Below are positions 22,106 to 54,035 of a stretch of 64,000 nucleotides of DNA, piece after piece (position 1 is the first letter of the stretch; every line of letters begins with the position of its first letter). A program made the position numbers and the translations under genes. The notes under the pieces were generated by a model, which worked only from the letters and a program-made list of their open reading frames with translations, searched no databases and had not been told where the DNA came from. Origin of the DNA: Holophagales bacterium (GTDB lineage Bacteria > Acidobacteriota > Thermoanaerobaculia > UBA5066). The DNA lies in contig JADJVF010000017.1 of NCBI GenBank assembly GCA_016716705.1, positions 53,808 through 117,807 on the forward strand. The letters run 5' to 3'.

Positions 22106-23068
22106 TCAGATCGGCGGCTCCCAGAAGCGGGAAAACATGTACCACTGCTCGCCGTTCTCCCGAACCGTCCGCTCCAGGATCGCGACGAACTCCGTCATCG
22201 CGGACTTCTCGGCCTCCTCGCGCCGGCCGCGCGAGGCCGCCTCGACCCGGATCGGCGCCTCGACGACCGTCCGGTAGGTCCCGTCCTTCTCCCTGAGGAC
22301 GAAGACCGGCAGGAGCGGAACGCCGGCCGCGGCGGCGATCCGGAACGGGCCGACGGGAAACGAGACGCTCCGGCCGAGGAACGGCAGCGTTCGCCCGGTC
22401 CCGGAGTAGTCGCGGTCACCCTGGATCGCGACGAAATACCCTTCCTCGAGGCTCCGGAGGATCCTTATCGCCGAGAAATCCGACTTCATCTGCAGCGACC
22501 GGATGCCGAGCCGGTCGCGTGCCGCCTTCCGGTCCCGCTCGACGACGGGCGAAGGATCGGAGAGGTAGACGACCGCCACCTTCAGGCCGATTTCCCCGAG
22601 AAAGAAGCCGCCGATCTCGAAGTTCCCGACGTGCGCCGTCAGGAGGATCGCTCCCCGTCCGGCGTCACGTGCCGTCACGAGGTGCTCGGTCCCTATGCGC
22701 CTCGGGACCACCGCGTCGAGGTCCGTCGGCGGCCGCTCGGAGAAGCGGAGGAGGTCGATCCAGGAACGCGAGTGGTGCCCGATCATCGCGAGCGCCGACT
22801 CCTCCACCTCGCGCCGCCACGACGGAAGCCCCAGCAGGGCGGCGTGGTTCTCGAGAATCGCCTCGCGCACCGGCTCGCGCGCCCAGATCGCCCGTTCCGC
22901 CGTCGCGGCCGCGAGGCGCGCCACCCACTCCGGCGGAAAGCGGAGGACGAGCCAGCGGAAGAACGGGAACCAGAGGCCGAACGTGGCGTGCGTCACGCGC
23001 GACACGATCGGCGGGGCGGCAGGGCGGCGGTCCGGCGCGTGCGGGTGGGTTGCGAGTGGGCGCGACAT
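22106..23068 (-). CDS. Lysophospholipid/lipid A biosynthesis acyltransferase (LpxL/HtrB family)
   Basis: The LPLAT fold is present, with the HX4D-type block (LLTAHVGNFE) and a downstream PVG region. Confidence 0.65.
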   Translation of the reverse strand: MSRPLATHPHAPDRRPAAPPIVSRVTHATFGLWFPFFRWLVLRFPPEWVARLAAATAERAIWAREPVREAILENHAALLGLPSWRREVEESALAMIGHHSRSWIDLLRFSERPPTDLDAVVPRRIGTEHLVTARDAGRGAILLTAHVGNFEIGGFFLGEIGLKVAVVYLSDPSPVVERDRKAARDRLGIRSLQMKSDFSAIRILRSLEEGYFVAIQGDRDYSGTGRTLPFLGRSVSFPVGPFRIAAAAGVPLLPVFVLREKDGTYRTVVEAPIRVEAASRGRREEAEKSAMTEFVAILERTVRENGEQWYMFSRFWEPPI

Positions 23069-23094
23069 GGAGGGGAGGCCCCGCGGCACGGGGG

Positions 23095-23731
<637 letters not shown>

Positions 23732-23797: not shown

Positions 23798-23825
23798 AGA
23801 GAGCTCGGCTAGACTCGTCGTTCCA

Positions 23826-25286
23826 ATGCCTTCCCAAGAGTTCGAGACGGTCATCGGGCTGGAAGTCCACGCGCAGCTGAAGACGCGGACGAAGGCGTTC
23901 TGCGCGTGCCCCGTCGTCTTCGGCGCGAGCGCCAACACCGCCGTCTGCCCCGTCTGCCTCGGCTACCCGGGCGCCCTCCCCGTCCTCAACCGCGAGATGG
24001 TGAGCCTGGCCCTGCGCCTCGCGTTCGCGACCCGCTGCGAGGTCCACGAGACATCGGTGTTCGCCCGGAAGAACTACTTCTACCCCGACCTTCCGAAGGG
24101 CTACCAGATCTCGCAGTACGACCGGCCGCTCGCCACGGGCGGCGTCGTCGAGGTCCGCGGCGAGGACGGCGCGCCCCGCGCGATCCGTCTCAACCGGATC
24201 CACCTCGAGGAGGACGCCGGCAAGTCGATGCACGAGGTTCCCTGGGACGACGTCCCGACGGGCGTCTCCCTCGTCGACCTGAACCGCGCCGGCACCCCGC
24301 TCGCCGAGATCGTCACGGAGCCCGATCTCCGCTCGCCGGAGGAGGCCTACGACTTCCTCGTCCGGCTCCGCCGGCTCGTCCGCTGGGTCGGCGCCTCCGA
24401 CGGCAACATGGAGGAAGGGTCCCTGCGCTGCGACGCGAACGTCTCGCTGCGCCCCGCCGGGGCCGACACGCTCGGGACGAAGGTCGAGATCAAGAACCTC
24501 AACTCCATCGCCCACGTGAAGAAGGCGCTCGAGCACGAGATCGCCCGCCAGGCGGAGGCGCTCCGCCGGGGGGGCGAGGTCGTCCAGGAGACGCGCCTCT
24601 TCGACCCGGGAAGCGGCGCGACGCGCCCGATGCGGTCGAAGGAGGAGGCGATGGACTATCGCTACTTCCCCGACCCCGACCTCGGCCCTCTCGTCGTCGA
24701 CGCGCGCTGGAGCGCAGAGGTTGCCGCCGCGCTTCCCGAGCTGCCGGAGCCGCGCGCGGCGCGCTTCGCCTCCGCGCTCGGCCTTCCCCCGTCCGACGCC
24801 GCGACCCTCTGCGCGACGCGTCCCCTCGCCGACGCCTTCGAGGTGGCCGTCGCCCTCCACCCGTCGAATGCGAAGGGGATCGCGAACTGGTTCCTCGGCG
24901 ACCTCCTCGCCCGGATGACCGACGCCGACCGGCAGGAGGGGCGTCTTCCCGTCGCGCCGGCCGCCGTCGCGCGCCTCGTGGCGCGGATCGACGACGGGAC
25001 GATCTCCGGGAAGATCGCCAAGGAGCTCTTCCCTCTCCTCTGCGAGGACGGCGCCGACGTCGATGCGCTGATCCGCGAGAAGGGGCTCGTCCAGGTGACG
25101 GACGAGTCGCCGATCCGCGCCGCCGTCGACGCGGTGATCGCCGCGAACCCGGTGCAGGCCGCGGCCTATCGGGGAGGGAAGCCGGCCGCGTTCGGCTGGT
25201 TCGTCGGCCAGGTCATGAAGGCGACCGGCGGGAAGGCGAGCCCCGCGCTCGTGAACCGCCTCCTCCGGGAGATCCTCGACGCGTGA
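23826..25286 (+). CDS. gatB: Asp-tRNA(Asn)/Glu-tRNA(Gln) amidotransferase subunit B
   Basis: The N-terminus (FETVIGLEVHAQL) and the zinc-site cysteines (CPVCLGYPG) are both GatB. Confidence 0.9.
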   Translation: MPSQEFETVIGLEVHAQLKTRTKAFCACPVVFGASANTAVCPVCLGYPGALPVLNREMVSLALRLAFATRCEVHETSVFARKNYFYPDLPKGYQISQYDRPLATGGVVEVRGEDGAPRAIRLNRIHLEEDAGKSMHEVPWDDVPTGVSLVDLNRAGTPLAEIVTEPDLRSPEEAYDFLVRLRRLVRWVGASDGNMEEGSLRCDANVSLRPAGADTLGTKVEIKNLNSIAHVKKALEHEIARQAEALRRGGEVVQETRLFDPGSGATRPMRSKEEAMDYRYFPDPDLGPLVVDARWSAEVAAALPELPEPRAARFASALGLPPSDAATLCATRPLADAFEVAVALHPSNAKGIANWFLGDLLARMTDADRQEGRLPVAPAAVARLVARIDDGTISGKIAKELFPLLCEDGADVDALIREKGLVQVTDESPIRAAVDAVIAANPVQAAAYRGGKPAAFGWFVGQVMKATGGKASPALVNRLLREILDA

Positions 25287-32179: not shown

Positions 32180-33236
32180 GAACCGGGCACCCGGGTGGGA
32201 CGTCGGGGACCTCCGGAGGGGACACCCGGCCTTCCCGTTCGTCGATCCGGAGCGTAAAGAACGACTCCACGGCCTCCAGGAAGGCCTCGGGGCTCGGGAG
32301 CGACTGGATCCGGCGACGCAGCTCCGTCCCCCTCGGGACGCCGTGCGTGTACCAGCCGGTGAACGTCTTCAGCTTCCCCATCATCCGCTTCGGGATGTCC
32401 TCTTCCGCCTCCCGGATCAGCCGGAAGTGCTGAAGGATGACGTCGCGCCTCTCCTCGAGGGTCGCCACGCGGTACGGCCGCCCGGCGAGGAGGTCGGCCG
32501 CCTGCCGGAAGATCCAGGGGTTCTTCATCGTGGCGCGACCGATCATCACCGCGTCGCATCCCGTCTCCCGGAGCATTCTCGGGACGTCCTCGGGCGTCTC
32601 CACGTCCCCGTTTCCGACGACCGGGATCCTCACCGCCTCCTTCAGCCGGGCGATCCGGCTCCAGTCGGCCCGCCCCGTGTACATCTGCTTCGCCGTCCGC
32701 GGATGGAGGGCGACGGCGGCGACGCCTTCACCCTCGCAGATCCTCCCGAGCTCGACGAAGTTGAGCGTCTCTTCCGTGATCCCGGCCCGGAACTTCACGG
32801 TGAGCGGCGTCGTCGGCAGCGCCTTGCGGCACGCCTCGATGATCCCCTTCGCGCGCCCGAGATCCCGCATCAGCCCCGCGCCGGCGCACCCCTTCAGGAT
32901 CTTGTTCGCCGGGCAGCCCATGTTGATGTCGCAGACGTCGACCCCTTCCTCCTCGACCCTTCGCGCCGCCTCGGCCATTCGCGTGGCGTCGGCGCCGTAG
33001 ATCTGGATCGAAAGGGGACGTTCCTCGGGCTCCCACCGGAGGAGCCGCTCGGTCCGGCGGTTGCCGCGGGTCAATCCCTCGGAGGAGACGAACTCCATCG
33101 TGACGAGGCCGACGCCCCCCATCCGCCGGAGGAGCAGACGGTACGTCCCGTCCGTGATCCCCGCCATCGGCGCGAGGACGAGCGGCGGGTCGACGACGCA
33201 GCTGCGCGTCCCTGGGCTCTCGTAGAGAAGCGGCAT
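32172..33236 (-). CDS. dusB: tRNA-dihydrouridine synthase B
   Basis: It has a TIM-barrel Dus signature (LAPMAGITD, catalytic Cys in NMGCPA, HPR). Confidence 0.85.
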   Translation of the reverse strand: MPLLYESPGTRSCVVDPPLVLAPMAGITDGTYRLLLRRMGGVGLVTMEFVSSEGLTRGNRRTERLLRWEPEERPLSIQIYGADATRMAEAARRVEEEGVDVCDINMGCPANKILKGCAGAGLMRDLGRAKGIIEACRKALPTTPLTVKFRAGITEETLNFVELGRICEGEGVAAVALHPRTAKQMYTGRADWSRIARLKEAVRIPVVGNGDVETPEDVPRMLRETGCDAVMIGRATMKNPWIFRQAADLLAGRPYRVATLEERRDVILQHFRLIREAEEDIPKRMMGKLKTFTGWYTHGVPRGTELRRRIQSLPSPEAFLEAVESFFTLRIDEREGRVSPPEVPDVPPGCPVLA

Positions 33237-33286
33237 CGGAGGACGGGTGCAGGGCGAGGAGCCCCGCACCCGAAACCCAGATTACG

Positions 33287-34132
33287 TCAGCCGGCCGGAG
33301 GAGCCGGGGCCGCCGGCGCCGCGGGAGCGGCGGGAGCGGCGGGAGCGTCCACCTCGAAGTACCCCTGCGCGAGGGCGAAGGGGGCCTCGATCCGCTTCTC
33401 GCCGCGGTAGAGAGCGACGATGTAGCTGTGCTTGCCGACAGGGAGGTTCTCCCAGATGACGGGCGCCCAGACCGTCAAGGTCTGCTGTGGATCCTGGTTC
33501 AGGCGGTAGACGATCTGGCACGCCTCCGGGTCGGTCGCCGGGCCCACCTTGCAGCCCGTGACGTAGACGTCGAAGAGGATCTTCGCCACGTCGGCGCCCT
33601 TGAATTTGCCGCGAGGCGCCCCCACGGTGACGGCCGGCTGGGCGATATCGAAGCCCGGCTTGCCGTTCTTCTCGCCGACGTGGAACGTCACCGCCGCGAA
33701 GGCGCCGGGCTCACGGATCGACTCCTGCCACGGCCGCTGGACGAAGGCGAGGAGCGTGTGAGTTCCCTTCGGCAGGGCCGGGAAGACCCACGGCTTGTCG
33801 GTCTGGAACCAGTCCGGCAAAACCCGACCGTCGAGGACGAGCTGGACGTGCTGGCCCCTCCCGGTCGCCTCGTCCTTGAAGGTCTCGAAGTTCTCGACCG
33901 TGACCTTCACCTCGACGCGCGCCCCCTTCGGCGCGGGCTGGCCTTCGACCGCCGCGGGCAACGGGATGACCTCGTCGGCCGTGGGCGAGACGATCTTCAC
34001 CGTCACGGGCCCCTTCGGTCCCCGCCCGTCCGGGTAGCCGGGAATCGGCGACTTCGGGTCGACCGGGGTCTGGGCCGCGAGCGGCATCGTGGCGAGGAGG
34101 GCGGAGGCGAACAGCGCGGCGAAGGGCTTCAT
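33287..34132 (-). CDS. Secreted hypothetical protein with a C-terminal (PAA)n tail
   Basis: A signal peptide is present (MKPFAALFASALLATMPLAAQ). The C-terminus reads PAAPAAPAAPAAPAPPAG. Confidence 0.5.
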   Translation of the reverse strand: MKPFAALFASALLATMPLAAQTPVDPKSPIPGYPDGRGPKGPVTVKIVSPTADEVIPLPAAVEGQPAPKGARVEVKVTVENFETFKDEATGRGQHVQLVLDGRVLPDWFQTDKPWVFPALPKGTHTLLAFVQRPWQESIREPGAFAAVTFHVGEKNGKPGFDIAQPAVTVGAPRGKFKGADVAKILFDVYVTGCKVGPATDPEACQIVYRLNQDPQQTLTVWAPVIWENLPVGKHSYIVALYRGEKRIEAPFALAQGYFEVDAPAAPAAPAAPAAPAPPAG

Positions 34133-34235
34133 CTGCTGGCTCCTTGGAGGGCGATCCTTCGTTTCGAGTCGACCCGGATGGCCGGGGAATGTAGCAGAGG
34201 AACCGTTCGCGGCGTGAGCCCGAATCCCGCGCGCG

Positions 34236-34889
34236 CTAACGCGCCGGGGTGGCCTCGCGCTGAAACCCTTCCGGCACCCGGAAGTACCCCGGGTCGATTC
34301 CGGCCCGGACGAGCGTCAGCTCCACGTACGTCTTCGCTTCCGTGCCGTCCGCCTTCGGCACGGCGCGCTCCTTGCGGACGACGATGCCGTCGAGGGCCGG
34401 CGTCATCCAGTAGGTGGTCGACGGGGAGTTGAACGCGTCGGGGCGGTCGGGGAAGCGCCAGATGTTGCAGGCGTTCCCGGCGAAGACCGCGTCCGATTCG
34501 CGGTAGTACTCCTTGATCCCCCGCCGGTTCGCCTCGGCGGCGTGGTTGAAGTCGGCCCCGAGCGGGAAGTCGTCGAGATGCGCCAGGAGCGCCTCGGGCG
34601 TTCCGGCGCGATAGCTCTTCGTGGCCGGGTTCACCTCGAAGACCTCCCCCCCCGCCGTCTCGCGGACGAAGTAGGGCGCGTCTTCGGCGTCGGACGTCGA
34701 CCGGCGGACCGCCTCGCCGCGGACCGCGAGCTGGAACCTCGCGAGCTCGGTGTCGCCACCGCGGACGGTGATGATCCCCGCGTACCCGTCCGTCCTCGGC
34801 CGCGGGGGTGGCCCCATCAGCTTTGCGCAGGCGGCCGTCAGGACCGGCGCCGCCACGAGCAGGAGGACGAGCGGGATCCGCGTTCTCAC
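34236..34889 (-). CDS. Hypothetical lipoprotein
   Basis: A lipobox-like signal is present (LLLVAAPVLTAAC). The gene is overlapped by 4 nt by the upstream repeat-protein gene. Confidence 0.5.
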   Translation of the reverse strand: MRTRIPLVLLLVAAPVLTAACAKLMGPPPRPRTDGYAGIITVRGGDTELARFQLAVRGEAVRRSTSDAEDAPYFVRETAGGEVFEVNPATKSYRAGTPEALLAHLDDFPLGADFNHAAEANRRGIKEYYRESDAVFAGNACNIWRFPDRPDAFNSPSTTYWMTPALDGIVVRKERAVPKADGTEAKTYVELTLVRAGIDPGYFRVPEGFQREATPAR

Positions 34890-36728
34890 GGCGCCCCCGT
34901 GATCGTCAGGCTGAGGAAGTGCTGCATGACGCCGAGCGCGCGAAGCGTCACCCAGCGCGACAGGTCCCCTTCTCTCTCGAGAGGGACGGGAAGGGTCACG
35001 CCGACCGGCCGCTCCAGCTTCCAGCGGGCACGGTGGTCGGCGCGGGCCACGAGGCGACCCAGGGCGGCATCGACCTCGGGCGAGCGAAACGCGCCCGCGG
35101 CGGCGAGGGCGCGAAGGAGCTCGAGGAGGTCCGACGTATCGCCGACACCGATCCCGGTCCGGGCCTGATCGTCCGTCATCGCTGAAAGCTCGACGTTCTT
35201 CGCGCGTTCGATGCAGAAAGTAATCGCGTTCTGGACGGCTGCCGACCGCTTCTCTTCCGCGACGGACGTCAGGACGAGGAGGTCCCCCGCCACGCTCTCG
35301 GACACGTGGTCCGAGGTGACGCGGCGGCGCGCGAGGTGGTCCGCCGCGCTGAGGAGCCGCGGGTCGTCGCCGTAACCCAGGAGGAAGAGCGCCCGGCAGG
35401 CGGAGACGAAACCGCTGCCGACGGCAGGGCTTTCACCCCGCTCGATGTCGACGATCACCCGCTCCCACCTCGCGAGGAGAAGGTCGGCGGCGCGCTGGAG
35501 CTCCGTCACGTCGGCATCGCACCCCATCTCGAGGAGGAGGAGGACGAACGACGTTCCGGGGTCGACGGCGGAGGAGGAGACGGACGGTCCGCCCGCCGGA
35601 AGCATTCCGCGCAGCTGCGGGAGGGCGTCCTTCAGGAACGGATCGCGCACCAGCACCTGCCGGGCCTTCCGCCGCTCGATGTCCTTCGCCGGACGATGGA
35701 GGAGATCGCGCAGGGCGACGTAGCGCGCCGCCGGACACTCCCGGGAGAGGAGCCAGTCGAGGGTCGAAAGCGGCACCGGAAACGCACCGGTCGGGAGAGT
35801 CCGCATGGGTCGCGGGGTCAGCTCGCGGCGCACCGTCGCGGGCATCGCGTCGGCGACGACGGCCGTCCGCGGCGAGGCGGGCGGCCCCTCGCGCCGAACG
35901 GTCCTCGCTCCCTCGCGTACGGGCCGCGGCGGCCCCGCCGGGCGAGCGCCAGGCCGGTCGTCCGGACGGTACGGCGGGCGATCCGGGCGCGGCCCCGCAG
36001 GCCTGTCGTCGCGGCGGAACGGCGGACGATCCGGACGCGGCCCCGCAGGCCTGTCGTCCCGACGGAACGGCGGACGATCCGGACGCGGCCCCGCAGGCCT
36101 GTCGTCGCGACGGAACGGCGGACGATCCGGACGCGGCCCGGCAGGCCTGTCGTCGCGGCGGAACGGCGGGCGATCCGGACGCGGCCCGGCAGGCCTGTCG
36201 TCCCGACGGAACGGCGGACGATCCGGACGCGGCCCCGCAGGCCTGTCGTCGCGGCGGAACGGCGGGCGATCCGGACGCGGCCCGGCAGGCCTGTCGTCGC
36301 GGCGGAACGGCGGACGATCCGGACGCGGCCCGGCAGGCCTGTCGTCCCGGCGGAACGGCGGACGATCCGGACGCGGCCCGGCAGGACCGGTCGTCCCGGC
36401 GGAACGGCGGACGATCCGGGCGCGGCCCGGCAGGCCGATCGTCGCGGCGGAACGGCGGGCGATCCGGACGCGGCCCGGCAGGCCGGTCGTCGCGGCGGAA
36501 CGGCGGGCGATCCGGACGCGGCCCCGCAGGCCTGTCGTCGCGGCGGAACGGCGGACGATCCGGGCGCGGCCCGGCAGGCCGGTCGTAGTGGCCACCAGGC
36601 GCGCCGCCCTCGGCGCGCGGTGCAGGACGGTCGTCGGGCCGGAACGGAGGACGGGCGCCGGGCCGTGCCGGCGGGCGTCCGGTGGGCCGCCTGGGCGGCC
36701 CGGAGCGTGAGCCCCCTCGCGGTTTCAT
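34886..36728 (-). CDS. Tandem-repeat protein with about 13 copies of a 16-aa unit (RPAGPRPDRPPFRRDD) and a roughly 300-aa C-terminal domain of unknown function; the reading frame is broken by a 1-nt indel inside the repeat array
   Basis: Two overlapping minus-strand ORFs (36728..35433 and 36595..34886) both read the same 16-aa repeat, but on opposite sides of a 49-nt repeat unit near 36370-36420. Confidence 0.5.
35985..36600. repeat. Direct tandem array of about 13 copies of a 48-bp unit (consensus GCCTGTCGTCGCGGCGGAACGGCGGACGATCCGGACGCGGCCCCGCAG); one unit is 49 nt
   Basis: This is read directly from the sequence. The units are near-identical with a few substitutions. Confidence 0.85.
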
Positions 36729-36754
36729 CGTGCGCGAGGATAATCCCTCGCGGG

Positions 36755-37537
36755 ATGAACGTCTTCCGAAGCGATCCGCCCCTCGTCGTCGCCCGCCGCG
36801 GCTCGACCCGCGACGCCGTGGAGAACACGATCGAAGCCTTCGACCAGGCCGAGGCCGACGGCGCCGACGCGCTCCACCTCGACGTCCGCCTCACCGCCGA
36901 CGGCGAGGTCGTCGTTTCCGCCGAGGCGGAAGTCGTTCTCGGGAACAGGCGCCTTCCCATCTCGTCTCTCTACCTTTCCGATCTCCTCGGCGTCACGGTC
37001 ACGAAGGGCGAGAGGAGCGGCGCGGTGCCGCTGCTGCGCGACGTCCTGACGCGCTACGGCCACGACGGCCGCTTCCTCGTGGAGCTCAAGCCCGGCCCCG
37101 CGCCCCGACCCGGCCTCCTCGAGTTCCGTGTCGCCGCCCTCCTGACGCAGTTCAACGCCCTCGAGAGGAGCGTCGTCGCGAGCTCCGCGCCGGAGCCGCT
37201 GAGGCGGATCCGCGAAGCGCAGCCCGCCCTCGAGACCGCCTTCTGCTACGACGGCACCGTCTACCGCCCCGAGGGACGCCTCTGGCCGAACCTGCCCAGC
37301 GGCTGCCGCGGCATCGCTCCCGCCGTCGCCCTCGCCTCCGAACGCCTCTTCGCCGAGGCGAAGGCCGAGGGGGTCGCCGTCCACGTCTCGACGGTGAACG
37401 ACCCCGCGGAGGCGGTCCGATTCGCCCGCCTCGGCGCCGCCTCCCTCGTCACCGACGACGTCCCGGCCGTGGTGGCCGCGCTGCGCGCGGCCGGCCTCGC
37501 GCGCCCGAACGCGCTCGCACCCGCGTCCGCCGAGTAG
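36755..37537 (+). CDS. Glycerophosphodiester phosphodiesterase (GDPD family)
   Basis: The translation MNVFRSDPPLVVARRGS…ENTIEAF…GADALHLDVRLTADGEVVV matches the GDPD catalytic core. Confidence 0.75.
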   Translation: MNVFRSDPPLVVARRGSTRDAVENTIEAFDQAEADGADALHLDVRLTADGEVVVSAEAEVVLGNRRLPISSLYLSDLLGVTVTKGERSGAVPLLRDVLTRYGHDGRFLVELKPGPAPRPGLLEFRVAALLTQFNALERSVVASSAPEPLRRIREAQPALETAFCYDGTVYRPEGRLWPNLPSGCRGIAPAVALASERLFAEAKAEGVAVHVSTVNDPAEAVRFARLGAASLVTDDVPAVVAALRAAGLARPNALAPASAE

Positions 37538-42059: not shown

Positions 42060-42881
42060 TTACGGCAGGTCGACGAGCTCGAGGGCCGCCGCCTCCCGGC
42101 CGAGGAACCGCCCGGCCACGCGGCGGAGGCGCTCGGAGGCGTCGGTGACGAGGAGGTGGGTCTCTCCGGCCCCGCCTTCGCGCCGCGCGTTCGTGCCGAG
42201 GAGCGTCTCGACCTCGACCGCCGTGGAGGCCGCCGAGTCGACGAGGAGCGTCCCTTCGGGGAGCGCGGCGGCGATCGTCGCGGAGAGGAGCGGGTAGTGC
42301 GTGCAGCCGAGGACGACGACGCGGGCCCTCGCCTCGACGACGGGCGCCAGGTAGAGGCGGGCGGCGGCGCGCGCGACCTCGTTCTCCGTCCAGCCTTCCT
42401 CGGCGAGCGGGACGAAGAGCGGGCAGGCGACGTTCATCACCGTGCGGAACGGGTCGAGCGATCGGATCGCGCGGCCGTAGGCGTCGGAAGCGACCGTCGC
42501 CTCCGTCGCGAGGACGGCGATCGGCGCCTCGGCGCCGGGACCGGTGAGGCCCCGCGCCCGGCGGAGGGCCGCCCGCGCGCCCGGCCCGACGACGCCGACG
42601 ACGGGGACGTCGCCGGCCTCCTCGACGATGGCGTCGAGAGCGAGGGCCGAGGCGGTGTTGCACGCCACGACGAGCGCCTTGACGCCCCGCGAGAGGAGGA
42701 GCGAGACGGCGCGGCGGGCATAGCGGCGAACGGTCTCCACCGACTTCGTGCCGTAGGGGAGGCGCGCGGTGTCTCCGAGGTAGAGGAGGTTCTCCGAGGG
42801 GAGGCGGCGGGCGACGGCGTCGAGGACGGTCAGTCCGCCGACCCCGGAGTCGAAGAGGCCGATGGGGCGGTCGTCGGTCAT
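42060..42881 (-). CDS. murI: Glutamate racemase
   Basis: It shows the MurI N-terminus (IGLFDSGVGGLTVL), VVACNTAS and GCTHYP motifs. It continues in frame from the upstream GerMN-domain region with no stop codon. Confidence 0.8.
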   Translation of the reverse strand: MTDDRPIGLFDSGVGGLTVLDAVARRLPSENLLYLGDTARLPYGTKSVETVRRYARRAVSLLLSRGVKALVVACNTASALALDAIVEEAGDVPVVGVVGPGARAALRRARGLTGPGAEAPIAVLATEATVASDAYGRAIRSLDPFRTVMNVACPLFVPLAEEGWTENEVARAAARLYLAPVVEARARVVVLGCTHYPLLSATIAAALPEGTLLVDSAASTAVEVETLLGTNARREGGAGETHLLVTDASERLRRVAGRFLGREAAALELVDLP

Positions 42882-47679: not shown

Positions 47680-48471
47680 TCAGGGAAACACCCGGGTCAG
47701 AACTCCCGTCGCCACCAGCGACGAGAACTGCTGCTCGAGCGACAGCGCGAAGGCAGGGTCCCGAACCAGCGCACCCGCCTCGATATTCCGCACGTGGGCC
47801 GCCTCCGTGAAGTTTGCCGAGGTGACGAGGGCGGTCTGGCTGTCGACGACGATGCACTTGGCGTGGATGACGCCGCGCGCGTCTCCCTTCTTCGCGAGGG
47901 CGCGACGGTCGTAGTAGAGCTCGGGCTCGCGTTTCGCCGGCCAGTTCTTCTTCAGGAACTCCCGGAAGTGGTCGCGGGCCACCGCGTCGGGGTCGAAGTC
48001 CGTACCGGGAGGCGGCGGGACGTTCAGGAAGAGGAGCACCCGGAGATCCCCGATCTCCTCCATCCGCGCCGCGAGCGGCTCGAACACCTCTTTCCCGAGG
48101 TAGACCGTGTAGCTCGAGATCAGGACCGTCCGGATGGCGGTCGAGAAGAGCTCCCGCACGACGACGGACGTGTCCCGGCTCTGGCTTCCGGGCGTCTCCG
48201 GCCCGGTCCAGACGAGCTCGACCCTGTCCGCGGCCGCCTCTTTCTGCTTTCTCTCCGCGGAGGCCGCGAAGAGGACTTCCGCGATGTGCTCGGGCGGCAC
48301 CCCCACGCCTTCCAGTCGACTCAGCTCGGCAACCAGCCCCGACAGATCGACTTTCGGGACGTATCTCGCCAGACCGCCGACGGAGTAGGGGCCGGAGAGC
48401 CTCCCGTCGGCGAGCGCCCGGGCGATCGTCTCGAGCGCCGCCCGCGAAGCTCCGCCGAGGGAACCGCTCAC
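47680..48471 (-). CDS. Phospholipase D-like (HKD) nuclease, DISARM DrmC-like
   Basis: A single HKD motif is present (HAKCIVVDSQTALVTSANFT). It is the last gene of the helicase-DUF1998-PLD operon and its start overlaps the DUF1998 gene's stop by 4 nt. Confidence 0.7.
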   Translation of the reverse strand: MSGSLGGASRAALETIARALADGRLSGPYSVGGLARYVPKVDLSGLVAELSRLEGVGVPPEHIAEVLFAASAERKQKEAAADRVELVWTGPETPGSQSRDTSVVVRELFSTAIRTVLISSYTVYLGKEVFEPLAARMEEIGDLRVLLFLNVPPPPGTDFDPDAVARDHFREFLKKNWPAKREPELYYDRRALAKKGDARGVIHAKCIVVDSQTALVTSANFTEAAHVRNIEAGALVRDPAFALSLEQQFSSLVATGVLTRVFP

Positions 48472-50270
48472 AGGTCCTCCTCGCCGAAGAACTCCGGTCC
48501 CGGGCCGAGGACCGTCGGGACGACGAGAGCGCGATCGAGGAAGTCGTTCCTGTTTTCGCAGCTCGGCTCCGAGATCAGGAGGCAGCCGTGGCAGGCCGAC
48601 CCCGAGAGGAAGCGCTCCTCCTGGCTGCTGTTCGGCCGGTGCATCGCGCAGACCGGATCGTTCGAGCAGAGGCGGGCCATCTCCAGCGCGCGGCGCAGGT
48701 GGAGGTCGAGGCGGCGACCGACGTCGATCAGGCCTCCCAGCGTCCCCTCAGCGTCGGGGCTCGACGTGTAGAGAAGGATCCCGTGCGCGTCGTCGCCCGC
48801 GTAGATCCGCTCTCTTATCGAGCTCGTCGCGTAGCCGCAGTCGAGCGATACCGCCGTCAGCAGGAGATGCGACAGCGAGTGGAGGAGGATGTAGGGGAGC
48901 CCCGGGAACTCCGCGTTCGGCTTCTTGTGGACCGTCTTCCAGGCCTCGAACCCTCCCGCCAGCTCCTTCTCCCGGACCTGGACCTCGGGCCGCTTCCGCC
49001 AAGCGGAGACCCGCGAGGGGTCGAGGGTCAGGAAGATGCCCTCGCCCCGGTTCTCGACAGCCGGAACCCACTTCACCTCGGACGCGAGCGGGGCCGACCG
49101 CACGTCGAGAGAGAGCTCCCCGTCGATGTCGGCGGCCTGCGCCTCGAACCTCGTGAAGCCCACCTGCGCCGACACCTCGCGCAGCCGGTCCACGAGGACG
49201 ACCCGGTCGATCGCCCGGAGCGGTCCCGTCTCTCTCCTGATGGGGATGCGCCGGGCCAGGAAGTCGGCGCCTCCGTGGAATTCCTCGCCGAGCTTCTCCT
49301 TCACCGACAGGAGCGTGGCCAGCTCCAGCTCCTTGATCTTCTGGTTCGGGAGAGGTCCTCCCGTCCGGCGTCTCTCGATCTCCGCGAAGACCTCGTCGTC
49401 CGACAGGCCGTCGAGGGCGGCTTTCACGGATGGACGTTTCCGCTCCTTGGCGAGATCCTCGCGGCTCTCCACAAGCGACAGGAAGTCTTCCCAGAGCTTC
49501 GCCACGGCGTCGCGCACGAGCGACCCACGGTCCGGGAGAGAAATGACGCTGAGGACCTGCGAGAAGTAGGCGTCGCTGGCCGAGCGGATGAGCAGGCGGC
49601 TGAGCTGCAGCTTTCCGCCTTCTCCGCCGCACTTCTCTCCTGCGTACTTCCCCAGCCAGGGCCGCTTGCCGAGGCATGCCCCGAGGTTCTCCGCACCGCG
49701 CCTCGTGGCCTGCGCCATCGACCGCTCCTGGCCGCAGTCGCATCCGACGATGACGTCCGCGAGGTCTCCGGAGGAGCCCCGCTCTTCCATCCAGATCTGC
49801 CGGGCGCAGTCGCCACGGTACTGGTGAATGAAGCCGTGCCAGTCGATGTCGGACAGGTGACCCAGGACGCAGGCCTGAACGAACCGGACCGGGATCGCCG
49901 GGACCTTCTTCCCGTCCACCTCGTATCGGCCCTTCGTGAGGCTCTCGAGGTGAACGAGCGGCCGCCTCTTCCTCTTGACCTGCACCACGAACCACTCCGG
50001 AAACTGGAACGCCGGCACGCCTGTCGGGGTCTTTCTCTCGTCGTCGTCGGCGATCGGCGGCCCCTTCAGCGGCACCGGCTTCGCGCGATTCAGCACCGCC
50101 GCGACCTTCGCCGAGAGCCTCTCCTCGACGATCGCCGGCATCTCCGCCTGGGGAAACCAGTAGTCGAGCCCGCTGACGACGACCGAGTGGTTCGGCAGGT
50201 CGACCATCGAGCCGGGGCCGTAGGTCCGGATGAGCTGGCTCCGGCGGATCTCCCCCTGGTGCTTCTTCAC
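48468..50270 (-). CDS. DUF1998-domain protein, DISARM DrmB-like
   Basis: From the GTG start, the N-terminus reads KKHQGEIRRSQLIRTYGPGSMVDLPNHS. A C-terminal Cys cluster (CAMH…CHGCLLISEPSC) is typical of DUF1998. The start overlaps the helicase stop (GTGA). Confidence 0.7.
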   Translation of the reverse strand: MKKHQGEIRRSQLIRTYGPGSMVDLPNHSVVVSGLDYWFPQAEMPAIVEERLSAKVAAVLNRAKPVPLKGPPIADDDERKTPTGVPAFQFPEWFVVQVKRKRRPLVHLESLTKGRYEVDGKKVPAIPVRFVQACVLGHLSDIDWHGFIHQYRGDCARQIWMEERGSSGDLADVIVGCDCGQERSMAQATRRGAENLGACLGKRPWLGKYAGEKCGGEGGKLQLSRLLIRSASDAYFSQVLSVISLPDRGSLVRDAVAKLWEDFLSLVESREDLAKERKRPSVKAALDGLSDDEVFAEIERRRTGGPLPNQKIKELELATLLSVKEKLGEEFHGGADFLARRIPIRRETGPLRAIDRVVLVDRLREVSAQVGFTRFEAQAADIDGELSLDVRSAPLASEVKWVPAVENRGEGIFLTLDPSRVSAWRKRPEVQVREKELAGGFEAWKTVHKKPNAEFPGLPYILLHSLSHLLLTAVSLDCGYATSSIRERIYAGDDAHGILLYTSSPDAEGTLGGLIDVGRRLDLHLRRALEMARLCSNDPVCAMHRPNSSQEERFLSGSACHGCLLISEPSCENRNDFLDRALVVPTVLGPGPEFFGEEDL

Positions 50271-53200
50271 GCCTCGGCCTCCTCGATCTCGGGAACGTCC
50301 CGGTTGTCGAGGCGCCTCAGGACCAGGCCGACGCTCGGCTCGACGTCTCTCATCGCGCGCTGGGCCCGGAACTTCCTCATCTCGGGGTAGAGATCGAGCT
50401 CGGGGTCGAGCGGGTCGCGCAGCAGCGGGAAGGCGTTCGCCGGGTTGCCGCGCTCCCATTTCTGGTAGACCACCTTCACGTTCTTCTCCCGCTTCTCGCG
50501 CGCGAAGACCGCCCAGCTGTCGAGGAGGTCGTCCACGAGGCTCCGAACCCGCTTGCGGAGGGCCTCGAGATCCTCGTCGCTCTTCGAAGGGTCGTGCCCC
50601 GAGGCCCTCTGCGACATCGCCTCCGCCACGAACCCCGCGTCCTTGCGGCACCTCTCCATGGCGGCGGCCCCGCCCGGAGGCTGCAGCTCCCGTATGCCGT
50701 GCCGCGCGAGCGCGACGCAGACGGCCGCGGCCGCCCGGTCGAGCGCCCGCGCCGAGAAGGGCGTCACGCTCGTCGCCTCCACGGCACGGTAGAAGGTCGC
50801 GTGGTACGCCTCGAACCGCTCGTAGTGCGACCGGTCCCGCGGACGGTGGACGTTCTGGAGCGTTACGACGAGGCCGGGCCGGTTGTCGTCGCGGCCGACG
50901 CGGCTCGTCGCCTGGATGTACTCCGACGTCGTCTTCGGCTGCCCGAGGACGACCATCAGCCCGAGCCGCGGGATGTCGAGGCCGACGGAGATCATGTTCG
51001 TCGCCAGCGCCACGTCGACGTGGTCCTTGTGGTCGTGGGAGAAGGCGAGGCGCTCCCTTGCGCGGGAGACCTTCGACGTCGATTCGCGCGACGTCAGCTC
51101 GACCACTTCCTGCTGGATCTGACGGTCGCGGAAAGGGCCGGCGATCTCTCCCATCCGTCGCCGCTCGCTGCGCTGCGCGGCTCTCGCCGCGACCTCGTCC
51201 TCGACGATCCGTCTCGTGCCGCCCAGCTCCCTGAGGCTCGTGAAGTAGCCGAGAAGGCTCATGTAGGGGTCCGCCGGGTTCTTCTCCCCGAGCGCCGTCC
51301 CGCCCGCCTCGTCATACATTCGCTGCGAGGCCCCGAGCAGCGCGAGATAGGCGCGCAGCAGCAGGACCTTCAGGCTCCGTCCCTGCGCGGAAAGCCCGAC
51401 GTACGTCCGCGGCTCCTTCTCGGAGACGGGCACCGTCCGCGCGAAGAAGGAGTCCCGCCGATCGGGACCAGGGGGAGGAAACACCGCAACCGACGAACGA
51501 CCGAACAGCGCCTTCACCTGCGCCTCGGCCCGCCGGATCGTCGCCGTCGACGCTACGATCTTCGGCCGGATCGCCTTGCCGTCGACGAACCGCGTCGCCA
51601 GCGTGTCGATCGCGATCTCGTACAGCCCCGCGATCGTCCCGAGCGGCCCGGAGATCAGGTGCAGCTCGTCCTGGATGATCAGGTCCGGCGGCAGGAGCTC
51701 CTTCTCCGCCTTCCCGAACAGCCCTCCCACCTCGCCGACCCACGGAAGGCTCGCGAACTTGTCCACCGTGGCGATCAGGAACGCGGGGAGCCTCTGGTAG
51801 ATCGGCTCGTCCACCGTCAGGATCGGCAGCGGACGCCTGCCGGTGAAGTCGCAGTCGCGGTTCATGCAGACGACCCTCAGGTCGGTCGGGCGGTCCGCGT
51901 TGGGCAGAAGCGAGAACGACGGCGGCAGGAACGGCTCGCCACACCAGGGGCAGCTCTCCAGCGGAATCGGCGGCGGATAGCGCTTGCTGTCCTTCTTGTA
52001 GCGAAGCGTCTTCGACCTCGCCGTGTTCTCGTCGCCGTCGGCCTTCGAGCCCATCCGGTTCGGCGTGGCCGCCCGGCCCACCCAGAGCCCGACCTCGAAC
52101 GGCCATTCCCCCATTTCGGCGGGATTCGTCTCTCTCTCGAGCTCCAGGGCACAGACGAGCGCCGCCACGCGCCCAAGCTGGTCGAGCGTCAGGAGCCGGA
52201 GCGTGTATCTCATCAGGACCGAGACCCCGGCCGACGAAAGGCCCGGGTTCCGGAGGCGCCGAAGGACCATCGTGAAGGCCGCGAGCCCCAGGTAGGCCTC
52301 GGTCTTTCCTCCGCCCGTCGGGAAGAAGAGAAGGTCCACCGCGTTGCGATCTGCGGACTTCGGGTCCACCACGCTTCTCAGGTTCATCAGGAGGAACGCG
52401 AGCTGGAACGGGTACCACGCCGGAGCGCGCGTGGCCTCGGGCCGCACCTTCAGCAGCATCGCCTGGCGGCGCCGGGCCGCCCGGGCCATCGCCCGGTTCG
52501 CCACCTGGAACGCCTGAGAACCTGCGGGTCGGAAAGAAGGCCGATCCCCGTCGCGATCCGGCCGCAGGCGAGCTCGGCGTCGCGCAGAAGGAACTGCGCG
52601 GTCTCGGCGCGCCGCCCCTCGAAGACCTCGCTGCGCTGCCTTCCTATCCACTCTGCGTAGCGAAGCGGAAAGGGAGCCAGCGCCGACTTCAGCTCGTCCG
52701 GCCCCTTCATCGCAGCCAGGGCTTCCATCCCGAGCTCGACGCCCGGCATCAGGGTCGGCTCCACCTTCTCCACGGCCGCACGCGGCACCCATTCCGTGGA
52801 GACCTCCCGGCACTCGCCGTCGCTCCCGAAGACCGTCCGGGCCGAGACGCCGTGCCCCACGACGAACTCGACGACGTCCCGGTACTGGAGGTCGGCGACG
52901 CGCTCGTCCCAGTCTTCCGCTTCGAGCCCCGTCGCATTCGGCCTCGGCACGAAAGGCTGCTTCCCCCGCACGGTGAGACGAACCTGGAAGGCCATCGCCT
53001 CGTCCTTCCGTTCGTCGGGCGCGGGCTTGCGATAGTTCACGACGAAGACCGAGATGCTTCGCGTTCCGGCCGGAAGCCCCAGCCTCTCCATCCCATCCGC
53101 CGGCCGAGCGGTGACGATCAGCTTCAGCCCGCCGGAGTCCGGAAGGTCGAGAGGAAGCGGCTTCGAGCCGTTGCCCGTGACGGCCACCCGGAGAACCGAC

Positions 53201-53622
53201 CGCTTCGGTTCCCTCTTCCACGTGTCGCCGGCCCGTTTCGTCGCGCCCTCGCCCTCGCCCTCCGCCGCCGGCAGGCTGTAGTCCCCCCAGGTCACCTCCG
53301 CCTCGAGCTCCTGCAGCCCCGCCGACGTCAGGACGCTGAGGCCGATGGACGAAGGAAGGAACGCCTTCCTCGCAGAGGCCCGGTCGGGCGCATCGGAGTC
53401 GTCCGCCCCCACCTCGTCACCGGCAGCGAAAAGCTCCTCGTTGCTCGTCTGGTCGCACTTCTGCTCGTCCGACGCCTCGAACGGCACGAGGAACCCGCCG
53501 ATGTACCAACGGGATGGCTCGTCGGGCAGCTCTTCGCGCTCGTGCACGCTCCCCGGCTCCGGACCGGTGAGGTCGAGCCGCAGGGCCCGAATCAGCTCGT
53601 CCCGGACTTCGGCGGATTTCAT
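50267..53622 (-). CDS. DExH-box helicase, DISARM DrmA-like; reading frame interrupted by a 1-nt frameshift near 52505-52530
   Basis: The N-terminal part is ORF 53622..52450 (MKSAEVRDELIRALRLDLTGP…). The helicase part lies in a different frame, ORF …52516..50267, with motif I FFPTGGGKTEAYLG and motif II IIQDELHLISGP. The two frames abut at the rev-comp sequence …PQVL|QAFQVANRAM. Confidence 0.65.
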
Positions 53623-54035
53623 CGTGGTCCTCTCCAGCTCAGGGGAGCTCCACTTTGCGGGACTTGTCGACGTGATCGCCGGACAGCGCGCCTTCCGGAC
53701 TCATGATACCCACGCTCGAGAGGCACTCTCGCCGGCCAGGTCGGGGCGACCCCGAAGCGGTATCGCGGCGCATGGCACTCCTGACCTGGGACTGAGCCCA
53801 CATCGCGAACGCCGAGCTCTTCCCGCAAGTGGCCCGCCTCGTCGAGCGACGCGGCCTTGGCCCTCAGAACCTCGGCCAGGGTGCAATCATCGGCAAAGGG
53901 GTAGTTGGGAAGTCGACCCGGCGTCTCCAGGGCATCCTGCCCGCGCTTCGCAAACTCGAGGAACTTCTGTGGTCCCTCTCGGCACCCTGGACGTTCTCGA
54001 GGTTCCTGACGAAGAAGCGCTCGTCCCTCCTGCGC

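Follow-up and report, generated by a model that had tools for sequence, protein, structure and literature searches.

A conserved 48-nucleotide coding tandem repeat in an uncharacterised Acidobacteriota gene family, with an apparent frameshift best explained by a probable assembly error or, failing that, a very recent mutation

Introduction

Open reading frames (ORFs) of Borgs contain near-perfect nucleotide repeats that give rise to perfect amino-acid tandem repeats (aaTRs), which are commonly intrinsically disordered (Schoelmerich et al. 2023, PMC9879509). In this study we describe a comparable array on the minus strand of contig JADJVF010000017.1 (Holophagales bacterium, assembly GCA_016716705.1). 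The array lies in a stretch of 64,000 nt, contig positions 53,808 to 117,807, which was analysed as a whole and is referred to as the window. It belongs to a gene encoding a repetitive N-terminal tail and a C-terminal domain, and a single extra T inside the array interrupts the reading frame. As in the Borg ORFs, the repeats run head to tail within an ORF, the peptide is selected and homologs carry repeats of the same amino acids. Borg aaTRs are described there as A-enriched and mostly located in extracellular or membrane proteins, whereas the window array is GC-rich and encodes part of a presumably cytoplasmic protein on an Acidobacteriota chromosome. Furthermore, the aaTRs are presented there as recently and independently formed, whereas the window array has orthologs throughout a clade, in some species of which the repeats have degenerated while in others they have been re-homogenised. 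The aaTRs are the closest described phenomenon, and the window array is a new example of it in an uncharacterised family.

A second class of repeat-containing coding regions is represented by contingency genes, in which copy-number change of repeats of 1-7 nt toggles the reading frame. The window gene resembles them in having repeat DNA in the 5' coding region with a frame break inside it. However, the units of contingency genes are not multiples of three, whereas the window unit is 48 nt long and its frame is broken by a lone insertion that is absent from the orthologs.

In Arg-rich disordered segments, mixed charge and aromatic residues are linked to multivalent binding of polyanions and to condensate formation. 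Arg-rich disordered extensions occur in bacterial RNA-metabolism proteins, including the C-terminal domain of RNase E in BR-bodies and an Arg-rich clade of RhlB (PMC10412687, PMC13462270). They are looser functional analogues of the window protein, sharing with it a long charged Arg-rich segment that only some lineages have, joined to a folded domain. In contrast, the window protein has no helicase or nuclease domain, and its tail is N-terminal, strictly periodic and 30% proline. No link of the window gene to RNA was found except for an adjoining tRNA-dihydrouridine synthase (Dus) gene, which is probably merely adjacent.

Results

Tandem Repeats Finder detected the array with a period of 48 nt, 13.2 copies, 93% matches, 0% indels and a score of 1060. 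It is the sole high-scoring coding array in the window (Table 1). The units that deviate at the peptide level are the first (HYDR...) and the last (...PPYR). In the DNA of the 12 core units, 8 of the 48 columns are variable. The initial annotation had described about 13 perfect copies of a 48-bp unit; the copy number and period hold, but the copies are not perfect. The 49-nt copy that it placed near 36370-36420 was recovered. Cutting the array in register on the minus strand gave eleven spacings of 48 nt and one of 49 nt, with the extra T at 36386. The T is flanked as GACGACCGG-T-CCTGCC (minus strand), and a neighbouring unit reads GACGACCGGCCTGCC. It lies outside any homopolymer (immediate context CGG-T-CCT).

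The division into two ORFs reported initially was likewise reproduced. The ORF starting at the ATG at 36728 (431 aa) covers ~4.3 units in the RDDRPAGPRPDRPPFR frame, after which it leaves this frame and extends as far as 35433, and the ORF at 36595..34886 (569 aa) begins out of frame, gains the last 9 units and extends into the C-terminal domain. Deletion of the T produced a single ORF of 613 aa, close to the single protein of roughly 610 aa anticipated for the case that the indel is an error; twelve orthologs have an ORF of this kind. The 613-aa product consists of a 50-aa leader, the 13 repeat units, a 35-aa linker and a 319-aa domain. It contains neither a signal peptide nor a membrane segment, the maximum 19-residue hydropathy (KD19) being 1.28 and the values remaining below 0 throughout the tail, over the first 280 averaged positions. 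The protein is therefore presumably cytoplasmic.

We analysed the variable columns of the array in all six frames. In the RDDRPAGPRPDRPPFR frame, 7 of the 8 columns are synonymous, compared to 6 of 8 in the antisense 'shadow' frame and 1 of 8 in the remaining four frames. Given that 27% of the possible substitutions in the consensus unit are synonymous, the probability of observing at least 7 of 8 is 6.5e-4. The window, L003, L056 and L049 have consensus DNA units with several nucleotide differences, yet all encode RRDDRPAGPRPDRPPF. Thus, the array is coding in the RDDRPAGPRPDRPPFR frame, as had been proposed, because the variable columns are almost all synonymous and the peptide unit is kept in four genomes despite the DNA differences. 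The unit length is divisible by 3, and without the T the array shares the frame of the flanking ORF, as it natively does in the twelve orthologs. The nucleotide differences are mostly synonymous and the repeat peptide is conserved, a pattern which indicates that the repeat tail is translated and under selection. We consider it probable that the locus is one protein-coding gene with a ~613-aa product, composed of a repeat tail and a helical domain.

Orthologous loci (~60) were found through homologs of the C-terminal domain and compared. A word-indexed search with this domain returned 313 homologs, nearly all of which measure 300-350 aa and belong to assemblies of Holophagales and Thermoanaerobaculia (Acidobacteriota). 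Within the close clade, the C-terminal domains are 72-98% identical to that of the window, and the region from the domain to the divergent glycerophosphodiesterase (GDPD) gene always measures ~0.9-1.1 kb. The ORF is uninterrupted at 12 loci (L001, L003, L004, L008, L010, L011, L012, L013, L051, L052, L053 and L056). In each of them it begins with a conserved leader (MKPRGGSRSGPPRRP[T/F]GRPPARPGARPPFR...), followed by DRPPFR-type repeats and the C-terminal domain. Nucleotides 1-34 of the coding sequence (36695..36728) are identical in DNA across all long-form orthologs.

The arrays of L003 and L004, which come from two separate metagenomes, are identical 12-unit arrays, and L056 carries a comparable array with the same 16-residue unit. 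The identity of L003 and L004 demonstrates that the long array is real biology; an assembly duplication is ruled out by these two arrays together with that of L056. A comparison of copy number across genomes, as suggested in the initial annotation, gave 12, 13 and ~16 units in different species, with tails of 278-358 aa. A CRISPR-like or non-coding repeat was also considered, and was rejected on the basis of the continuous ORF in the orthologs and the synonymous substitution pattern.

Frame breaks inside the array were found in three sequences only: the window, L002 (contig_35328), with several frame shifts, and L006 (tig00000899), with a deletion of a G. Names beginning with contig_ or tig are typical of long-read assemblers, and we infer that L002 and L006 are probable long-read contigs. 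Contigs with short-read-style names (NODE_, k141_) that span the array are intact. The arrays of L001 and L006, from two metagenome-assembled genomes (MAGs), differ over 1.1 kb by one single-nucleotide polymorphism and a 1-nt deletion (GG to G) that frameshifts L006 alone. An exact-pattern scan of metagenome contigs for the frameshift site of the window, with and without the T, gave 0 matches; a same-strain sequence was not found. Exact look-ups of two proteins of the window returned no record of either. As a separate observation, L001 and L006 have near-identical arrays, yet their C-terminal domains are 78% and 90% identical to that of the window, respectively, and the lipoprotein gene of L001 is called at just 132 aa. 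This suggests that L001 carries further indel errors.

A second lone T is present in the window at ~42915 (minus strand; CCACC-T-CCGCG) when compared to L001, ~35 nt upstream of the murI ATG at 42881. It lies ~35 nt ahead of the expected stop codon of a GerM/Germane-domain gene, so that the stop is lost and the gene is fused in frame to murI (42060..42881). With this T removed, the GerM-like protein ends in ...PRPARDSYRT* and overlaps murI by ATGA, as it does in L001 (...PRPAKDTYRT*). The T at ~42915 is probably a second indel error in the window.

The N-terminal tail of the window protein comprises 294 aa, of which ~30% are Pro, 28% Arg and 16% Asp/Glu, with a net charge of ~+37. Each repeat unit contains one Phe, and aliphatic residues are almost absent from the tail. 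Across 13 genomes, the tail measures 278-358 aa, with 11-18 RxPF motifs, a net charge of +35 to +41, and contents of 25-30% Pro, 26-29% Arg and 15-18% Asp plus Glu. This composition and the low hydropathy are consistent with intrinsic disorder of the tail, and the composition agrees with the spacer or binding platform envisaged in the initial annotation. A protein search with the repeat tail passed 0 of 8,000 candidates, composition filtering presumably suppressing low-complexity matches.

In distant family members, with domains 42-57% identical to that of the window, the protein starts at the same position and the N-terminus is merely 10-37 aa long and Arg/Pro-rich. This indicates that the tail arose by clade-specific expansion of a pre-existing short basic Arg/Pro-rich N-terminus common to all family members. 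The tail of 278-358 aa is kept by one Holophagales/Thermoanaerobaculia clade. It evolves by gain, loss and homogenisation of whole units, its DNA being re-homogenised in whole 48-nt units or in double units of ~96-102 nt. During this homogenisation of the DNA, selection keeps the peptide, the motif count and the charge near constant.

The C-terminal domain had been described as being of unknown function, and it has no sequence match in Pfam, NCBIfam or the PDB. An AlphaFold2 (AF2) model built with 75 homologs, the check proposed at the outset for the C-terminal ~300 aa, is confident and all-helical, with a predicted local distance difference test score (pLDDT) of 91.5 and a predicted template-modelling score (pTM) of 0.90. 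Among PDB structures, Foldseek ranked squalene-hopene cyclase (3sqc), transcobalamin, complement C3d/TED, GH76 and other alpha/alpha toroids highest. The modelled domain weakly resembles these toroids, and we do not file it as a terpene cyclase. Squalene-hopene cyclase is a two-domain enzyme of ~630 aa, whereas the window protein has a single domain of ~320 aa, and a regular-expression search of the 319-aa domain found neither the DxDD nor the QW motif. The squalene cyclase models PF13243, PF13249 and TIGR01787 gave zero matches to the window protein. Distant relatives scored sub-threshold values of 16-25 bits against these models (cut-offs 26 bits for Pfam and at least 322 bits for the TIGR models). 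The invariant columns of the domain contain no conserved Cys/His metal site.

An exhaustive profile search with the domain recovered 1,329 cluster representatives at E <= 1e-3, the best 150 of which are mostly proteins of ~300-360 aa. A few distant members of the family are fused to GNAT or DUF3795 domains. One representative, P0152, matches the family profile with E 2.5e-29 and belongs to a cluster that NCBI names 'nitrogen fixation protein NifH', for example WP_323394154.1 of Sphaerochaeta associata, with 340 aa and no repeat tail. A true NifH identity was rejected: P0152 and the window protein have no Pfam domain at all, and hence no Fer4_NifH P-loop. The name 'NifH' on this cluster appears to be a propagated misannotation.

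The order of genes at the locus is conserved in ~60 loci: GDPD (divergent), the target gene, the gene for a 217-aa lipoprotein, the gene for a 281-aa secreted protein and Dus. The stop codon of the target gene overlaps the GTG start of the lipoprotein gene by 4 nt (GTGA). This overlap and the synteny support the apparent operon, headed by the target and followed by two secreted or lipoprotein genes, that the initial annotation had proposed. The target, lipoprotein and secreted-protein genes evolve much faster than Dus (38-52% versus 78-80% identity in the deepest comparisons).

The 217-aa lipoprotein has no Pfam or NCBIfam sequence match. Its AF2 model (pLDDT 86.4) gave Foldseek matches in the PDB to LolA, LolB, EPDR1, RseB and LprG, with E values of 9e-8 to 1e-4 and a probability of 1.0. 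The model thus points to an unclosed beta-barrel of the LolA type, a fold that forms a lipid- or acyl-chain-binding half-barrel.

The short gap between the divergent starts of the target and GDPD genes contains a core, GATTATCCTCGC, that does not vary among the examined loci, whether long-form or short-form, and an extra copy of CCGCGAGGG is present just inside the target coding sequence. The gap is probably a shared bidirectional promoter or operator, and the arrangement suggests that the 5' leaders at the divergent starts are very short or absent. The start of the target gene is well anchored by its fixed position beside the invariant core in long and short forms. A promoter and terminator scan of 33000..37300 found nothing, and is uninformative at 72% GC.

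Table 1. Positions of the repeat gene, its parts and its neighbours in the window, followed by the arrays of orthologous loci
Feature	Position	Strand	Basis or remark
Whole reconstructed gene, 613 aa	34886..36728	-	One ORF without the extra T; as given, overlapping ORFs 36728..35433 and 36595..34886
Start codon and conserved N-terminal leader (MKPRGGSRSGPPRRPTGRPPARPGARPPFRPDDRPAPRAEGG...)	36579..36728	-	Ortholog comparison
Tandem array, 48-nt unit x 13.2	35950..36586	-	13 RDDRPAGPRPDRPPFR units; peptide identical in 12
Inserted T (A on the plus strand)	36386..36386	-	Shifts the frame; other units have no T at the equivalent position; break missing from twelve orthologs
Arg/Pro-rich linker (...PGARPAGPPRPVREGARTVRREGPPASPRTAVVADA) between array and folded domain	35846..35949	-	Reconstructed ORF, orthologs
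Conserved C-terminal domain, 319 aa	34889..35845	-	Internal ATG start (MPATVRREL...); modelled as all-helical, alpha/alpha-toroid-like fold
Downstream putative lipoprotein, 217 aa, modelled LolA/LolB/RseB/LprG-type fold	34236..34889	-	GTG start overlaps target stop
Second downstream gene, 281 aa, N-terminal signal-peptide-like sequence	33287..34132	-	Co-conserved with target and lipoprotein gene
Intergenic gap, 26 nt, between divergent target and GDPD starts	36729..36754	.	Core GATTATCCTCGC within palindrome CGCGAGG-gattat-CCTCGCG
L003 array			12 near-perfect 48-nt units
L001 array			102-nt double unit, 7.9 copies
L008, L010, L012 and L051-L053 arrays			Degenerate repeats

Discussion

The sequence comparisons suggest that the T at 36386 is most likely a consensus error in the assembly or, otherwise, a very recent mutation, because twelve orthologs carry an unbroken ORF; we infer that the frame break is not ancestral. 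The initial annotation had left the choice between error and slippage-type variation. Error or a very recent mutation is favoured by the unbroken orthologs. Slippage does not fit, as the 48-nt unit is frame-neutral and the T does not lie in a homopolymer. Moreover, two frame-breaking single-T insertions within ~16 kb fit consensus error better than two independent pseudogenes. Several observations speak against an error. The inserted T lies outside homopolymers, where long-read errors usually fall. Apart from the two T insertions, further split genes were not found in the window: in a search with a frame map of third-position GC (GC3) and Pfam, the 19 abutting same-strand ORFs all had complete, separate domains. 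A 5.1-kb alignment to the short-read contig L005 (91.7% identity) contains one gap, which is in frame and 18 nt long. In addition, the second T was judged from a single comparator, L001, itself a long-read MAG. The position of the T and the otherwise clean window would equally fit a genuine frameshift of this strain, caused by a recent mutation that inactivates or remodels the gene, which we regard as unlikely but worth keeping in view. The T is, after all, present in the sequence as given. The 431-aa product would then consist of the leader, four units and an out-of-frame SCRAASGSSAVPP-type repeat, and any production of the toroid-like domain would have to begin at the internal GTG at 36595 or the conserved ATG at 35845. 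All long-form orthologs for which this part of the sequence was seen have such an ATG where the domain begins, and the relatives with an N-terminus of 10-37 aa show that the domain can work without the repeat tail. However, 12 of 12 orthologs other than the two probable long-read contigs are intact, and the units flanking the T on either side still code for one and the same peptide, their differences being synonymous only, so that inactivation would have to be extremely recent. The second T breaks another conserved gene end within 16 kb, and L001 and L006 show that array frameshifts differ between two assemblies of near-identical arrays, both of which argue for error.

It is highly improbable that the break serves as a functional switch, whether by programmed +1 ribosomal frameshifting or as a phase-variable (contingency) locus that toggles long and short forms. 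Gain or loss of copies cannot alter the frame with a unit that is a multiple of 3, even though the repeats occupy the 5' part of the coding region as in many contingency genes. Array frameshifts do occur in three assemblies, but they differ in place and kind (in the window a T is inserted, L006 has lost a G and L002 contains several shifts). The frameshift site is conserved in none of the twelve intact orthologs, all of which have a single continuous frame, and it contains neither a slippery heptamer nor a homopolymer. We give equally little credence to the view that the true gene is the 319-aa domain only and that the upstream array is either non-coding or a small gene in its own right. In the twelve orthologs the array continues into the domain with no intervening stop codon, though their tails vary from 278 to 358 aa, and substitutions within and between species are synonymous in the tail frame. 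The domain-only view would account for the protein collection, in which every close homolog is the C-terminal domain only (304-345 aa), beginning at or just before MPATV. It would also account for the public gene calls at three inspected loci, in which the upstream 0.9-1.1 kb was left uncalled (L003, 5093..6000) or was called as a wrong-frame 322-aa ORF (L001, 5060..6028) or an antisense 343-aa ORF (L002, 4956..5987). On the other hand, 26 nt separate the leader ATG from the divergent GDPD start, and the short forms begin at this position too, which leaves no room for a separate promoter and 5' region. The antisense frame, with 6 of 8 synonymous columns versus 7 of 8 in the tail frame, runs against the operon.

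With a single continuous gene as the preferred reading, a role for the tail can be sketched with low confidence. The tail may act as a flexible, multivalent, polycationic tether, stiffened by proline, that presents an Arg/Phe contact motif every 16 residues. By binding to a polyanionic surface, it could hold the toroid-like domain there; the surface would be the anionic face of the inner membrane, nucleic acid or polyphosphate. The toroid-like protein might in turn act together with the LolA-fold lipoprotein, the secreted protein and the divergent glycerophosphodiesterase on an envelope lipid or other hydrophobic ligand. Two points tell against this model: it draws on composition, fold resemblance and gene neighbourhood only, and the fold match of the C-terminal domain is weak (Foldseek E 0.015 and TM 0.40-0.44, at a probability of 0.99-1.0). 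It is doubtful, and in our estimate rather improbable, that the tail is a selected module (tether or condensate-forming) that recruits a new toroid-like protein in a Thermoanaerobaculia-specific envelope-lipid module, as opposed to neutral repeat growth. In a bolder variant, the conserved internal ATG may allow cells to make long and short isoforms.

The main value of the analysis is a corrected gene model: the real products in this clade are probably ~600-680 aa long. The locus provides a clean bacterial example of a coding tandem repeat, with purifying selection on the peptide and repeated homogenisation of the DNA, attached to a widespread uncharacterised domain family. The apparent frameshift is probably not a biological feature; none of these results would surprise a specialist, and no long-standing question is opened. 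Note that tandem arrays give frameshifts that differ between near-identical assemblies (L001 versus L006), which calls for caution in counting pseudogenes in MAGs.

Two further features of the window are recorded here. A tract of ~580 nt (23146..23728) between the ORF 22106..23089 (minus strand) and gatB (23814..25286, plus strand) contains ~73% G on the plus strand, with a GC content of 0.79 and a GC skew of +0.22, and its minus strand forms long poly-proline ORFs. Either a poly-G artefact of sequencing or genuine low-complexity DNA could account for the tract. Furthermore, of three abutting ORFs at 48468..53655 (minus strand), one encodes an MrfA Zn-binding (MZB/DUF1998) domain, another a helicase C-terminal domain and the third a protein of 385 aa without a family match, an arrangement reminiscent of DISARM/Mrf-type helicase systems.

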